A DNA stretch of 64,000 nt from Dictyostelium discoideum (lineage: Eukaryota). Position 1 is the first letter of the stretch; each line of letters opens with the position of its first letter. The notes under the pieces were generated by a model that ran no database searches, was not told the DNA's origin, and saw only the letters and a program-made list of their open reading frames with translations. The stretch covers positions 4,736,001 to 4,800,000 of the forward strand of contig CM000151.3 in the NCBI GenBank assembly GCA_000004695.1, written 5' to 3'. This document shows positions 27,951 to 64,000 of this stretch, in pieces. A program made the position numbers and the translations under genes.

Positions 27951-29899
27951 ATGGCTAGAACTAATAATGAAAATAATAATAATAACAATGAAGAATCAGA
28001 ATCAGGGTCATCAACACCACCAAATATTGAATTAGATCAAGCACCAATTGTAAATTGGAAAATAATTGCAACTGCCAACACTCCAACCCCAAGATTTGGT
28101 AAGTTGTTTTTTTTAAAATTTTTTATTTATTTTAAAACACTTGATTTTAAAAAATTAAATATTTAATTTATTAATCTCTCTCCCCCCCTGTCTCTATTTT
28201 ATTAGATAATACATTAGTATATTATAATAAATTTTTATATAGTTATGGTGGATCAGAGAATTCAATTAATGGTGGATTTCAACAATTTGTAAAATTAGAT
28301 TTATCAACATTCCAATGGCAAACATTACCAGCACCAGCAAGAACTAGAATTGTACATACATCAGTGATTCATGGTGATTGTATGTACGTATTTGGTGGAG
28401 GTGTTTATGAAGATGTTAGAACTTCATTCCTTGGTGGTACAACTAAAGTATTTAAAACAATTAATGAACTTTGGAAATTTGAATTCCTTCAAAATCAGTG
28501 GACTCAAATTCTATCGAATGCAATCCAACAAACCACTGTACCATCACAATCAATGATAAATGAATCATTGAATAACCCAGAGCCAAGAGATGGTCATTGT
28601 GCAGTTGTAGTCGGTGATAATATGTATATCATTGGTGGTAGTCAAACTATTTCAACCAATAATTCAATTAGTTCAGTATTCTTTACAAATACTAAAATTT
28701 ACAATATTACCACCAATACATGGAGATCTGTAATCTCACCAGAATTTGGTAGATTAGGTTCTGCTGTCGTTTACAAGCATTTAGATGGTACAAAATGTAT
28801 TTACTTTTTCGGTGGTTATGGTTTAGACAGTAATCCAACAAATAAACTCTATAAATTCGATATAGAATCTGAAGAATGGGTAGAAGTTATACCAAAGAAA
28901 TCAACTTCACCATCGACATCAACATCGACATCAACAGTAGATGATATTGTAATAATACCAGAATCAAGATATGGTCATAGTGCAAATGTATTTCAAGATA
29001 AAATGTTAGTTTATGGTGGATATTCTAAAAAGAAGGGATTCCTTAGAGATTTTTATTCATTTGATTTCGATAAAGAAGAATGGAAACAAATTTTAACTGA
29101 AGGACCACCAAGAAGAAGAAGACATAGTACAGTTTTAATTGAAAATTTCGATGGTTCAAATAAACCAAAATTATTCTTATATGGTGGTTCATATCAATCA
29201 TGTCTATATAATGATCTTTGGGAATACTCTTTCCCAAATCCAGTTCAAATTCCATCGGATAATTTAATTGAAGATTTTTCAACATTATTTAAAAATGCAA
29301 AACAATATTTTAGTGATATTTGTTTTTCATTAGAATCAACTGAATTAGTTGGAGATGAAAATGATAATAATAATAATTCAAATAATAATTCAAAACCTAC
29401 AATTGTAACAAAAGAAATTTATGCACATAAAAATATTTTATCAGTTAGAAGTCAATATTTTTATTCATTATTTAATAGTGGGTTAAAAGAATCATTTGAA
29501 AAAGTTATTAAAATTAATGAAAGATATGAAGATTTTAAAATTTTTATTGAATTCCTTTATAGTGGAAATGAAGATTTAGTTTTATTAGAAAATTGTATTG
29601 GTATTTTATATTTATCAGATCTTTATTGTGTACCAAGATTAAAAACAATTTGTGAAGCAAAAGCAACTGAAGGTATTGATTGTGAAACTGTTGTTCAAAT
29701 CTTTAAAGAAGCTGATAGCTTTAAATTGGCAAAATTAAGAAAACTTTGTTTAAATTTCATTGCTCGTAATCATAAAGAATTAGTTAAACAAGGTTCATTA
29801 AATCAATTATCACCAAGTGTTTTAATTGAAATTATGGATTATTTATCAAGTTCATCAACATCAACATCAACATCAACATCAACATCAACAACCAATTAA
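27951..29899 (+). CDS. Kelch-repeat + C-terminal BTB/POZ protein (LZTR1-like architecture), 613 aa. Two exons: 27951..28098 and 28206..29899.
   Basis: Exon 1 ends ...TPTPRF+g, followed by GTAAGT at 28099. The acceptor is ttttattAG at 28204-28205. The phase-1 join gives ...PRFDNTLVYYNKFLYSYGGS..., a canonical kelch blade. At least 5 blades are present (HGDCMYVFGGG, DGHCAVVVGDNMYIIGG, GSAVVYKH..IYFFGGYG, GHSANVFQDKMLVYGGY, RHSTVLIEN..LFLYGGS). A BTB domain follows (...IYAHKNILSVRSQYFYSLFNSGLKES...FKIFIEFLYSGNEDL...), then an ST-repeat tail. The intron is 107 bp. Confidence 0.85.
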
Positions 29900-48887: not shown

Positions 48888-50574
48888 TTATTCTACATCA
48901 GTTAATCTAAAAACATAAACATATGGTGGATAATCTTGTGGTGCAACCATTGGAATGTTTAGTGTAATACCAGGTTTTGTTGATTCAATTGGTAATGATA
49001 CTTCAACACCTTTTTCACCTTTTAAACCTAATAAAGTTGCTTCTGTTTTATTATTACCAATTGGATCACTTAAAATTAAAACACCATCATCTGGTAATTC
49101 AAATACAAATGCATAAACATTACCATTGGTAGTATTTGTAGTATACCAGATGTTAAAAGTCATATTTTGAACTCTCCATGGTGAACTACCATAAATTGAT
49201 TCAGAATTAATTGATAACCAATTACCAATCTCTAATAAACGGTCAACCATATTATTTGGAATTGTACCTTGAGCATCTGGGCCTACATCCAATAAGAAAT
49301 TACCACCACATGCAACCGTTGTTACCAAATCAATTATTAACTCTGTAGCATTTTGATAATCAGTAGCCTGTTCATATTCATCATAACCATATGAATATCC
49401 AATGGTTGCACAATTTTCCCATTTATGTGATTGAAGTTTATATGGATTAAAATGGTCAGCACCAGTATAAAATCCACCATTCTTATCTCTACATTCACTT
49501 CCCCATCTATCATTTACAATTACTGTATCTTTAACACTACTATTTGTATATAACCAACTTAAAAATTCTGTTGATTTCCAATAATTACTTAATTGCATCC
49601 AATCACCATCTGCCCAAATTAATTCAGGTTCTAAAAAATTAAAAATTAAAAAAAAAAAAAAAAAAAAAATTATATTAATAAATATTTTTTAATTAATTAA
49701 TTAATTATATAATAAAAAACCACATACCATATGTTGTAACAATATCTTTTAATTGTTTCATTAAAATTTCATCAACATAAACTTGAGTTGTTGGGTTTTT
49801 ACCAGTTTCAGCATCTGCAAGATATAATGGATTAAACCATTCTATTTTTTTTTTTTTTTTTAAAAAAAAAAACAATATTAGTATTAAAATTAATAAATAA
49901 TAAATTTAATAAAATATTTACCAAATAAAGAATGATAAAGACCCATATGTAAACCCATGTTTTTAACAGATTTTGTTAACTCACCAACGATATCAATACC
50001 AGGACCAGTTTCAACAGAATTCCAATTCCATGATTGTTCACTATTCCAAAGGGTATAACCTTCATGATGTTTTGATGTTAAAACTACATATTTTGCACCA
50101 GATTTTTCAATTATTGATGCCCATTCATTAGCATCGAATAAACGACAATCAAATCTTGAAACGAAATCTTGATATGTAAAATTGGCTCCAAACTCTTTTT
50201 CATGATATCTTTGTGTTGCACCACCATCAGAACTTGGATTTTTTAATGTCCACCAATACCATTCTGCATATCCTCCATTTGCAAATGCTGGTACACTATA
50301 AATTCCAAAATGAATAAATATTCCAAACTTTACATCATCATACTATAATATATTATTATTATTATAAATTTTTTAAAAAAAAAAAAAAAAAATATTAATA
50401 AAAAGTAAAAAATAATAATTATAAAAATAATAATAATAATAATAATAAAAATATAATAATATTTACCCAACCTGGTAATGGTCTTGAATTAATTTGGTCC
50501 CATGTTGGTCCATACTGTTGAGATTTAATTAAATTTAATATTAACAATATAAAAAAAATGATTATCATCTTCAT
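48888..50574 (-). CDS. alfA: Alpha-L-fucosidase (glycoside hydrolase family 29), secreted, 461 aa. Four exons: 50574..50467, 50342..49922, 49841..49728 and 49630..48888.
   Basis: Exon 1 (MKMIIIFFILLILNLIKSQQYGPTWDQINSRPLPGW) ends at GTAAAT at 50466. Exon 2 (YDDVKFGIFIHFGIYSVPAF...EWYWW...KYVVLTSKHHEGYTLWNSEQSWNWNSVETGPGIDIVGEL...LYHSLF+g) ends at GTAAAT at 49921. Exon 3 (EWFNPLYLADAETGKNP...IVTTY+g) ends at GTATGT at 49727. Exon 4 (EPELIWADGDW...FLSWLYTNSSVKDTVIVNDRWG...CGGNFLLDVGPDAQG...). The protein is colinear with human FUCA1 throughout (YDPTWESLD, KFGIFIHWG, LTSKHHEGFTLW, YYSLFEWFHP, GGNLLMNIGP). The introns are 124, 80 and 97 bp. Confidence 0.85.
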
Positions 50575-50764: not shown

Positions 50765-51016
50765 GATCAGTTATACAAATATTTTTTTGAGAATGCCCCA
50801 ACAAAAATAAAAATAAAAATTAAAATAAAAATAAAAATAAAAATAAAAAAAACCCCCACCCCTACCCTATCTAATTAAATTTACAAAAAAAAAAAAAACA
50901 AAATCTATCTAACCAATCATGTTTTTTAAACCCTTTTTTTTACAATTTTTGGGCCAAATATTAAATTAAAAAAAAAGATGAGAAAATTGGATGATTGGGT
51001 AAAATAATATCAGATA

Positions 51017-51066
<50 letters not shown>

Positions 51067-51154
51067 GTTACCTTGAAAGAGGGAATAAAATAATTTATTT
51101 ATTGAATATTTTTGGTCCAGTAAGGAGTCAAAAGCTAAATTTTCAAATAAAACT

Positions 51155-51347
51155 AACCTCCTCTTCCCCCATAAAGAAGGAGTTTGAACGAGCAAATACG
51201 CGATCTCCTTGAAGAGCCGGACTCACGTATAACCCTCGCCCAAGGAGGAGATGTCTAACCATCTTTTAGCCCTAACCTCTTCCGGAAGAGCTCCCCACCC
51301 TCAGCCCCCGGATAATTTGATTTGATTTGATACAGTATTTTTTTTTT
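51155..51347 (+). other. GC-rich (~50 % GC) island of ~190 bp ending in a T-run, directly 5' of the repeat cluster. Candidate structured ncRNA, or the unique terminal part of the repeat element.
   Basis: AACCTCCTCTTCCCCCATAAAGAAGGAGTTTGAACGAGCAAATACGCGATCTCCTTGAAGAGCCGGACTCACGTATAACCCTCGCCCAAGGAGGAGATGTCTAACCATCTTTTAGCCCTAACCTCTTCCGGAAGAGCTCCCCACCCTCAGCCCCCGGATAATTTGATTTGATTTGATACAGTATTTTTTTTTT. It has internal complementarity (CCTCCTC/GAGGAGG; the palindromic CTTCCGGAAG). The base composition is highly atypical for Dictyostelium intergenic DNA. Confidence 0.25.
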
Positions 51348-51354
51348 CAGTAAA

Positions 51355-52346
51355 TATCCTCACCTAAAGACCACCACATGGACTCATAACCACACACCTT
51401 CACCCAAAGACCACCACATACTGACGCATACCCACCCATCCAAACTCCATAAAATTGATACCTAAAAATACTGAATTAAAAATAATTGATTATTATTCTG
51501 TTTTTGCTTTTTATTATTTTATTTTTTTCTTTTTATTTATAATTATATATAATTCTTACCCTATAATCATAAAATATTAAATAGTTACCAATTGACCACC
51601 ACACCTAATACAAATGATACATTAATTAATTAATTTTTTTTTTTACAACACATACCTTCACCCAAAAACCACCACATGTTGACGCATACCCACCCATCCA
51701 ACCCCATTTGCTTTATACCTAAAAATACTGAATTTAAAATAATTAATTATTATTTTTTTCTTTTTATTTATAATTATATAATTCTTACCCTATAATCATA
51801 AAATATTAAATAGTTACCATATTACTACCACACCTAATACAAATGATTTTTTTTTTTTTTTTTTTCACAACAATCATCATTTGTATTAGGTGTGGTAGTA
51901 AATTGGTAACTATTTAATATTTTATGATTATAGGGTAAGAATTATATAATTATAAATAAAAAGAAAAAAATAATAATTAATTATTTTAAATTCAGTATTT
52001 TTAGGTATAAAGCAAATGGGGTTGGATGGGTGGGTATGCGTCAACATGTGGTGGTTTTTGGGTGAAGGTATGTGTTGTAAAAAAAAAAATTAATTAATTA
52101 ATGTATCATTTGTATTAGGTGTGGTGGTCAATTGGTAACTATTTAATATTTTATGACTGTAGGGTAAGAATTATATATAATTATAAATAAAAAGAAAAAT
52201 ATAAAATAATAAAAAGCAAAAACAGAATAAAAACCAATTATTTTTAATTCAGTCTTTTTAGGTATCAATTATATGGGGTTTTGGTTTTTGGGTGAAGGTA
52301 TGCGTTGTAAAAAAAAAAATTAATTAATTAATGTATCATTTGTATT

Positions 52347-52393
<47 letters not shown>

Positions 52394-52626
52394 TTTTCAC
52401 CACACACACCTTCACCTAAAGATCACCACATGTTGACGAATACCCACCCATCCAACCCCATTTAATTGATACCTAAAAATACTAAATTTAAAATAATTAT
52501 TATTCTGTTTTTGCTTACTATTATTTTATTTCTTTTCTTTTTATTTATAATTATATAATTCTTACCCTATAAAACATAAAATATTTATGACTTACCTTAA
52601 AGTTCATCAATTGACCTCATACAAAT

Positions 52627-52680
<54 letters not shown>

Positions 52681-52900
52681 CACAACACATACATTCACCT
52701 AAAGACCACCACATGTTGACGAATACCCACCCATCCAACCCATATGCTTTATACCTAAAAATACTAAATTTAAAATAATTTATTATTATTCTGTTTTTTC
52801 TTTTTATTCATATGATAAAAATATTTAATCTACCACCTATAAATTAAATTAAAAATACCTACCTTGAAAGACCACTCACCGTATGACGCACACACATAAT
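51355..52900. repeat. Cluster of at least 6 copies (full and truncated, both orientations) of a 200-280 bp non-coding interspersed element with a conserved GC-rich ~50-nt 5' core. Unclassified; a possible MITE/SINE-like Dictyostelium repeat.
   Basis: Direct copies start near 51391, 51651, 52392 and 52681. Inverted copies lie at 51876-52078 and 52089-52305, with a fragment at 52313-52346. The shared core is CCTTCACC(C/T)AAAGA(C/T)CACCACAT(G/A)(T/C)TGACG(C/A)ATACCCACCCATCCAA(C/A)C, followed by ..TACCTAAAAATACT(G/A)AATT.AAAATAATT..ATTATT.CTGTTTTTGC...TTATTTATAATTATATAATTCTTACCCTATAA..ATAAAATATT.A..., and in some copies ...ACCACACCTAATACAAATGATACATTAATTAATTAATT. The copies are separated by poly-T/poly-A runs (up to ~70 T at 52345-52392 and 52628-52680). 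Confidence 0.8.
51651..52078. repeat. Near-perfect palindrome: two ~200-bp copies of the element in inverted orientation around a T-run at ~51845-51866.
   Basis: The sequence 51651-51845 equals the reverse complement of 51876-52078 except for 2-3 substitutions (e.g. ACCATATTACTACC vs ACCAATTTACTACC). Confidence 0.85.
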
Positions 52901-63223: not shown

Positions 63224-64000
63224 TTAATCTTTAATTTCAACAACATATTCTGGTGAGAATTTACCATAAACACCTTTAGTTTCACCTTCCCATTCTTTTG
63301 GACTATTCTTTTTGAAAACATAAACAAGATCATCTCTAATTAAAGTTAATGTAGCATTATTAGTAGGAATACAATCTTTAATGACACGACAAGTTGCTAA
63401 AATTGGATTTGAATCAAATGCATCTTCATCATCCCAATCATCATCATCATCATTTTTTGGTTTTGGTGTTGGAGTTGGTGCTGCTGGTCTTGAAACTGGT
63501 GTTGGTTTTGATACTGGTGTTGGTGCTGGTGCTCCTGCACTAGTTGATGTTAATGGTCTTGGTGCTGGTTTTGGTACACCAGTAGTTGTAGGTACTGGAG
63601 TAGTTGTAGTTCCTGCTGCTATTAAAATATTAAAATTAAAATTTATTTATTTGATTAGTTTAAATTTTTTTTTTTTTAAAAAAAAAAAGAAACAACATAC
63701 GTTTTAATGGAGCACCTGCTGGTTTTAATGGTGATGGAGTTGGAGCACCTGCTGGTTTTAATGGTGATGAAGTTGGTGCACCTGCTGGTTTTAATGGTGA
63801 TGGGGTTGGTGCACCTGCTGGTTTCAATGGTGATGAAGTTGGTGGTGCACCTGCTGGTTTCAATGGTGAACCTGCTGGTTTTAATGGTGATGAAGTTGGT
63901 GGTGCTGCACCTGTTGGTGGAGCTGGTGTTGGTCTAGCTGCAACTGGTGGTGGTGTAGTAGTGGTACCAACTTTAGCGCCAAATGGTGATGGTTTTAATG
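63224..64000 (-). CDS. Partial (5' end outside the window) Pro-rich repeat protein with a C-terminal SH3 domain. Last exon 63618..63224, preceding exon 63702..>64000.
   Basis: The upstream exon encodes six or more tandem 11-aa units, SPLKPAGAPT(S/P)S, from a 33-bp DNA repeat, and ends ...GAPLK+c at GTATGT at 63701. The acceptor ttaatAG at 63620-63619 gives PAGTTTTPVPTTTGVPKPAPRPL...NDDDDDWDDEDAFDSNPILATCRVIKDCIPTNNATLTLIRDDLVYVFKKNSPKEWEGETKGVYGKFSPEYVVEIKD* (an SH3 fold). The intron is 83 bp. Confidence 0.7.

Follow-up and report, generated by a model that had tools for sequence, protein, structure and literature searches.

[quoted passage not shown] The locus described here raises the question of whether one such island is a small-RNA gene, and on which strand, or whether it is something else. 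A non-coding block of 50% GC would be unlikely to persist against a genomic background of 78% A+T unless it were young or constrained. The island lies in a stretch of 64 kb (the window) that has a GC content of 24.0%, very long A/T runs and Asn-rich proteins, and is in these respects Dictyostelium-like. A sequence-only reading of the same DNA had proposed that positions 51155-51347 form a segment of ~50% GC that ends at a Pol III terminator-like run of ten thymines (T10) and that either encodes a plus-strand RNA of ~190 nt or is the unique 5' part of a composite repeat element.

The proposed composition was borne out. The 51155-51347 segment is 46.6% GC, its core somewhat more (Table 1), and the GC level of the island lies at about the 99.9th percentile among 193-bp windows of the 64-kb stretch. 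The island is sharply bounded, with its right edge at ~51312, and the plus-strand base counts of 51141-51312 are A49 C57 G30 T36. The surroundings are less extreme than the ~10% GC that had been claimed for them, at 16.6% in the 500 bp to the left and 26.6% in the 500 bp to the right. In AX4 coordinates the island corresponds to chr2:4,787,141-4,787,312. Stop codons interrupt all six of its reading frames, which rules out a coding exon; the comparably GC-rich stretches that were checked elsewhere in the window (63400-64000) were coding. One of these, on the minus strand at 63660-64000, is a tandem coding repeat of ~52% GC with proline-rich units of the PLKPAGAP(T/S) type that runs off the window end.

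When the island was compared with its own window by blastn, the self-match was accompanied by a single 40-bp match at 29555-29594. This lies inside a Kelch/BTB-type coding ORF and was rejected as a second copy of the island, the match being due to chance. The GC-rich island therefore exists, is non-coding and is single-copy within the 64-kb window. Its sequence is composed of short motifs, CTCC/GGAG and CTCTTC/GAAGAG, that occur in either orientation, and the complementary blocks reported within it were confirmed. It also contains a perfect palindrome (Table 1) and three occurrences of CTAACC on the plus strand (at 51153, 51255 and 51272), which would read GGUUAG on the minus strand.

Comparative searches returned no relative of the island. 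There was no blastn match (E <= 1) to E. coli genomes, plasmids or phages, and contamination or transfer from those sources is therefore unlikely. Two comparison loci were considered, one from a bacterium (L001) and one from a eukaryote of 38% GC (L002), and L002 has no homologue of the island. Nothing was found in metagenome scans made with a 22-mer of the island and with the head of the neighbouring repeat, and strings from the island and the repeat had no match in literature string searches. Published listings of snoRNAs, G-quadruplexes (G4), lncRNAs and miRNAs gave no island sequence and no chr2:4787xxx entry among the entries covered, which for the lncRNAs did not extend past chr1.

Table 1. 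Positions of the island, its predicted RNA features and its neighbours in the window
Feature	Position	Strand	Detail
First exon of the downstream alpha-L-fucosidase gene	50467-50574	-	MKMIIIFFILLILNLIKSQQYGPTWDQINSRPLPGW
Weak full-length match to U4 snRNA (RF00015)	51128-51247	-	20.9 bits (family gathering score, 46)
GC-rich island proper	51141-51312	.	172 bp, 50.6% GC
UUUU run, 4 nt past the fold	51149-51152	-	possible Pol III stop
Y-shaped fold (three-way junction)	51156-51252	-	8-bp closing helix AUCUCCUC/GAGGAGGU
5' segment complementary to U6 stem II	51228-51252	-	AUCUCCUCCUUGGGCGAGGGUUAUA; duplex of -25.9 kcal/mol with human U6 core
GC-rich 5' extension	51253-51312	-	60 nt; hairpin 51312-51281, G-run tract GGGGGCUGAGGGUGGGG, GGUUAG twice
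Perfect 14-bp palindrome	51277-51290	.	CTCTTCCGGAAGAG; sequence reading
AT-rich linker between island and repeat	51313-51337	.	25 bp
T10, the T-run heading repeat unit U1	51338-51347	.	six-unit alignment A1
Neighbouring repeat cluster	51338-~52895	.	six to seven units, each ~230-300 bp, some inverted relative to others
Starts or extents of repeat units	~51338, 51634, 51869-52091(-), 52092-52321(-), 52349, 52629		partial head at 52858

The T10 run was examined through the repeats that follow it. Six repeat units were set in one orientation and aligned (alignment A1), and each of the six opens with a T-run (10, 11, 11, 11, ~44 and ~52 T). The T-run is followed by CA or ACA, then by a conserved C/A-rich head of ~70 nt (ACACATACCTTCACCCAAAGACCACCACATGTTGACGCATACCCACCCATCCAACCCCAT) and finally by an AT-rich body ending in CCACACCTAATACAAATGA. 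The heads are ~50% GC, are C-rich on the island's C-rich strand, and carry the string ACCCAAAA, which resembles the snRNA promoter element DUSE. T10 is in register with the T-runs that head all six units and so belongs to the first of them, U1. It is a repeat-unit boundary and not evidently an island terminator; the GC block itself does not reach T10, being separated from it by the linker, and a plus-strand Pol III RNA ending at T10 therefore loses its main support. The half-copy of the repeat that had been placed near 51355 is present, as a duplicated half-copy of the head that starts at ~51355-51361.

The alignment also bears on whether the island is part of a composite element. The island sequence is absent from the other five aligned units and from their junctions within the 64-kb window, which holds one island and six to seven units. 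The T-run of U1 resembles a poly(A) tail on a copy in minus orientation. The island lies on this side of U1; if the units are retro-copies, the island is therefore on the wrong side to be their 5' part. The proposal of a composite element is thus unsupported within the window, and the island stands alone, adjoining the low-copy repeat cluster without being part of it.

Read in reverse complement, the repeat head gives TGGGGTTGGATGGGTGGGT, an exact match to p5, one of the G-quadruplex sequences of Saad et al. 2019 (PMC6511855, Table 2). For D. discoideum AX4 that paper lists p5 three times on chr2 ("4788017-4788460"), twice on chr1 (~1,755,955-1,756,455) and five times on chr5 (849,448-850,835; PMC6511855). 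Window positions 52017-52460 (444 bp) correspond to chr2:4,788,017-4,788,460 with an offset of exactly 4,736,000 (74 x 64,000), by which the window extends over chr2:4,736,001-4,800,000. Three exact copies of p5 occur in the window, at 51688-51706(-), 52017-52035(+) and 52442-52460(-); the published chr2 range covers only two of the three, the third being that at 51688-51706. With ~10 exact copies of p5 at three loci (PMC6511855), the repeat is accordingly low-copy and clustered, and not a high-copy transposon. No match of the repeat unit to a named Dictyostelium repeat family was made.

Two further features of the cluster were observed. The first is an inverted duplication with arms of 425 nt (51430-51854 and 51869-52293) that are 96% complementary to each other across a spacer of 14 nt. 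A transcript of both arms would fold back into one hairpin of ~420 bp (-590 kcal/mol, z -80) and would be a potential source of dsRNA or siRNA; D. discoideum has active RNAi. The second is a 12-nt string, TACCTTGAAAGA, found on both outer sides of the island and cluster (51070-51081 and 52860-52871). Its right-hand copy lies within the degenerate head of a seventh unit, and its left-hand copy, which follows an A55 run, may represent either one more truncated head or a chance occurrence. Targeting of the TRE5/TRE3 type, in which a Pol III gene lies 40-150 bp away and the 5' end of the element is proximal (orientation rules in PMC5911963), was also considered and rejected; ARAGORN found no tRNA gene in the 64 kb, and it is the T-run tail of U1 that faces the island.

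Folding of the island was strand-dependent. The minus strand from 51252 to 51141 folded with a free energy of -41.4 kcal/mol and an ensemble frequency of 0.157, the minimum free energy (MFE) structure was also the centroid, and none of 200 shuffled sequences was as stable (z -3.28). In the predicted structure the closing helix of the Y surrounds two hairpins, one long and interrupted, the other short. The plus-strand fold of the island had a z-score of -1.54, and G-U pairs numbered 8-16 in the minus-strand folds versus 0-1 in those of the plus strand. The 60-nt extension upstream of the Y contributed no significant fold (51315-51253, z +0.34); its G-run tract is G4-prone. The sequence that follows the Y is UAGUUUUAUUUG, and its UUUU (51152-51149) is possible as a Pol III stop, although uninformative in AT-rich DNA; T4 runs are common here.

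The strength of this fold has to be read against its background. Among 512 sampled windows of 112 nt from the same DNA, the z-scores had a standard deviation of 1.4 and a 5% quantile of -2.5, and the island's fold lies in only about the top 3-5%. The distribution across the window has a heavy negative tail (1% quantile of -4.6; most negative values down to -8.6, at 251-362), caused by A-run/T-run complementarity in AT-rich DNA. A z-score near -3 is therefore weak evidence for a structured RNA in this genome.

Rfam covariance models were used to ask whether the fold belongs to a known family, and for the whole 64-kb window nothing was found at any family's gathering threshold. SRP, RNase P/MRP, snRNA and snoRNA models had been suggested as the means of identifying the RNA; the best match to any of them, that to U4, fell well below its threshold (Table 1). 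Its E-value was 0.018 in a 701-bp scan and 0.0063 in a 251-bp scan of the island, and all other matches had E >= 0.4. The U4 alignment runs from end to end of the model (1-138) and has a 17-nt central deletion. Of the seven weak matches in the 251-bp scan, six, the top one among them, were to the minus strand. Matches of snoRNA type were to a C/D snoRNA (E = 0.55, 19.6 of 101 bits) and to sR60 (E = 5.9), and Vault RNA, Y RNA, SRP and RNase P/MRP models gave no match at E <= 10 in either the 251-bp or the 701-bp scan. Fold and weak family matches both favour the minus strand. The claim of a structured RNA thus survived in part: the structure signal was found, and the strand that had been proposed for it and its T10 end were not upheld.

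The U4 match was then compared with the hallmarks of that RNA. The complementarity of the U4 5' end to U6 stem II was found, with a human U6 sequence rather than with Dictyostelium U6. The 5' segment (Table 1) was the best 25-nt window of the island against the U6 stem-II region, and only 2 of 1000 shuffles were as good; this test is not independent of the U4 covariance-model score. For U6 stem I, UGCUCGUU could pair with GAUUAGCA with one mismatch, at a duplex energy no better than that of shuffles (z +0.1). The 5' stem-loop comprises an 8-bp stem (AUACGUGA/UCGCGUAU), an internal loop of 1 nt and 2 nt, and a 3-bp stem, and in no register does it contain a K-turn (a 3-nt bulge with tandem sheared G-A/A-G pairs, the Snu13/15.5K site). 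The Sm site (A U4-6 G), which in U4 lies between two 3' stem-loops, is represented only by the near-matches AUUUGA and CUUUUGA in the AT-rich tail, where the 3' stem-loop consists of A-U pairs only. At the level of sequence, nhmmer found no match between the island and U4, and a Smith-Waterman comparison with the U4 consensus or human U4 was not significant (z = 1.4, 60 of 500 shuffles as good).

Promoter signals were sought on both strands. Dictyostelium genes for snRNAs and Class I RNAs have a DUSE ([AT]CCCA[ACT]AA) ~60 nt ahead of the transcription start (PMC3188802, PMC7919456). None was found within reach of that position upstream of the island on either strand; the nearest DUSE-like strings, at 51660(+), 52056(-) and 52286(-), are all inside repeat units, and U1 now occupies the position expected of a minus-strand promoter. 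An A-box-like UUGGGCGAGGGUU at 51243-51231 matched six of the nine specified positions by our own reading. A B-box-like GUUCAAACUCC at 51189-51179, with two mismatches, was rejected as evidence for Pol III, since such sites occur in the window at chance frequency (129, versus 118 expected). Inspection of the island for the hallmark boxes of C/D snoRNAs, H/ACA snoRNAs, Class I RNAs and the hammerhead ribozyme found none of them, and these classes were rejected.

The reading that we tentatively prefer, as possible rather than probable, is that the island is a minus-strand gene for a small structured RNA, or the relic of one, with a U4-like layout. The RNA would be ~100 nt long if it started near 51252, or ~165 nt if it included the 5' extension from 51312. 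It would fold as the Y-shaped junction between 51252 and 51156 and run into the UUUU. A putative unpaired segment at its 5' end, with complementarity to U6 stem II, would be followed by the long 5' stem-loop, a second stem-loop and a U-rich tail. We infer that the island is or was transcribed, and the resemblance to U4 would reflect descent and not chance. The insertion of U1 25 bp upstream may have removed the island's promoter. Within this reading, a non-canonical or decayed gene copy is more probable than an intact gene, and the 60-nt GC-rich 5' extension is left unexplained by it.

A somewhat unlikely account, although the foremost of the alternatives, is that the island is inert, being a fragment of a mobile element, of a longer ancestor of the repeat family or of some other insert, with no RNA function of its own, that has yet to drift to the AT-rich composition around it. 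The heads of the adjoining repeat units share its GC content and its C-rich strand, and TACCTTGAAAGA brackets island and cluster together; there is no transposon ORF nearby, however, nor any bacterial, plasmid or phage similarity. The five other aligned units lack a copy of the island, which sits on the T-run side of U1 rather than at the position expected of a retro-copy's 5' part, and the low copy number of the repeat also counts against this origin. Further points in its favour are that the CTCC/GGAG and CTCTTC/GAAGAG motifs, present in either orientation, would by themselves give hairpins, that no promoter motif was found, and that the fold z-score is unexceptional in this genome. As such a relic, the island would merit little more than a passing mention alongside the low-copy repeat cluster.

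That the island acts as DNA, as a G-rich, G-quadruplex-prone or G-box-type promoter block for the alpha-L-fucosidase gene that needs no RNA product, is improbable but a serious rival. The island lies 567-738 bp upstream of the ATG of this gene, whose last exon has GH29 homology (best protein match 51% identical), and the G-rich strand of the island is the strand of the gene. Positions 51282-51319 have a G4Hunter-type score of -1.68, but this G4-prone part amounts to only ~40 bp of the island. The promoter G4-prone sequences published for D. discoideum resemble parts of it, as p40 (TGGGGGGAAGAGG) resembles ATGGGGGAAGAGG (PMC6511855), but the promoter G-tracts listed there are 19-43 nt long (PMC6511855), a length far exceeded by 172 bp at 50% GC. 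The perfect palindrome is of the kind bound by dimeric factors; the strand-specific Y-fold and the U4 match would be left unexplained. A second C-rich block, at 50837-50881 (AAAACCCCCACCCCTACCCTATCT, G4Hunter-type score -1.84), stands ~270-300 bp ahead of the ATG on the strand of the gene; it resembles a G-box/CAE-type or G4-type promoter element and counts in favour of this reading.

Improbable to a slightly greater degree is the expression of the island as a lineage-specific small RNA of a kind uncatalogued in Dictyostelium, be it U4-like, a vault RNA or, remotely, a telomerase RNA. In one version, a U4-like RNA with a G-rich 5' extension and U6 stem-II pairing, and without a K-turn, could titrate or regulate U6. 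Vaults occur in D. discoideum, as does an orthologue of the vault-associated TEP1, and a 2026 study describes no Dictyostelium vault RNA (PMC13100048). TERT is likewise present in Dictyostelium, which has telomere repeats of the form A-G(1-8) and a telomerase RNA subunit given as 'not known' (PMC6592521); the C/U tracts of the island are complementary to these repeats. An expressed minus-strand RNA would add an snRNA-like, U6-pairing species to the Dictyostelium catalogue of non-coding RNAs, and could point to a missing RNA (vault RNA or telomerase RNA).

The plus-strand Pol III-type RNA of ~190 nt first proposed for this segment is very unlikely. T10 would stop Pol III whatever its origin, and C/U tracts such as CCUCCUCUUCCCCC are present on the plus strand, but the run is that of the U1 head and lies 25 AT-rich bases from the GC block. 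Plus-strand folds were weak overall (z -0.9 to -1.5) and nearly free of G-U pairs, the only Rfam matches on this strand were far under threshold (19.6 versus 101 bits in the 701-bp scan and 11.8 versus 60 bits in the 251-bp scan), and no DUSE or box motif lies upstream. A working U4 snRNA gene is more improbable still: the top Rfam match covers the full model and the 5' segment complements U6 stem II, but the score is less than half the gathering threshold, the alignment has its central deletion, sequence similarity is not significant, there is no clear Sm site or DUSE, and the possibility is effectively excluded because the K-turn is missing.

The preferred reading, a minus-strand RNA gene or relic, can be set beside several known systems. 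The p5-bearing repeat is the island's closest neighbour: the two are contiguous, both are GC-rich (the repeat in its head) and both are C-rich on the same strand, but they have no alignable similarity and differ in copy number in the window (six to seven units versus one island). Vault RNA and Y RNA, which are Pol III transcripts of panhandle form, share with the island a core of ~100 nt with pairing 5' and 3' ends, A-box-like and B-box-like motifs and a UUUU 4 nt past the fold; they differ from it in the covariance-model searches, which matched neither family, and the B-box-like site is of a kind found at chance frequency.

U4 snRNA (RF00015) is the family whose layout the minus strand most resembles. 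The island differs from it in lacking a K-turn, a convincing Sm site, a 3' terminal stem-loop and a DUSE, in its 17-nt central gap and its 60-nt GC-rich 5' extension, and in a score and a sequence similarity that fall short of those of a family member. The order of elements is the same in both, with a 5' segment for U6 stem II leading into a long 5' stem-loop, a second stem-loop and a U-rich tract, and the island has a single-stranded UUUGCUCGUUCAA where U4 has UAUUGCUAGUUGAAAA.

A precedent for such a combination may exist among the snRNAs of Dictyostelium itself. Hinas and co-workers are said to have described, in 2006, divergent U2 variants that carry an extra 5' stem-loop, keep the hallmark motifs of U2 and have a DUSE upstream. 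The island, unlike these variants, has no DUSE and does not retain the hallmarks of its presumed model, U4; like them, it would join an snRNA-like core to an extra 5' stem-loop, the hairpin at 51312-51281 standing ahead of the U4-like core.
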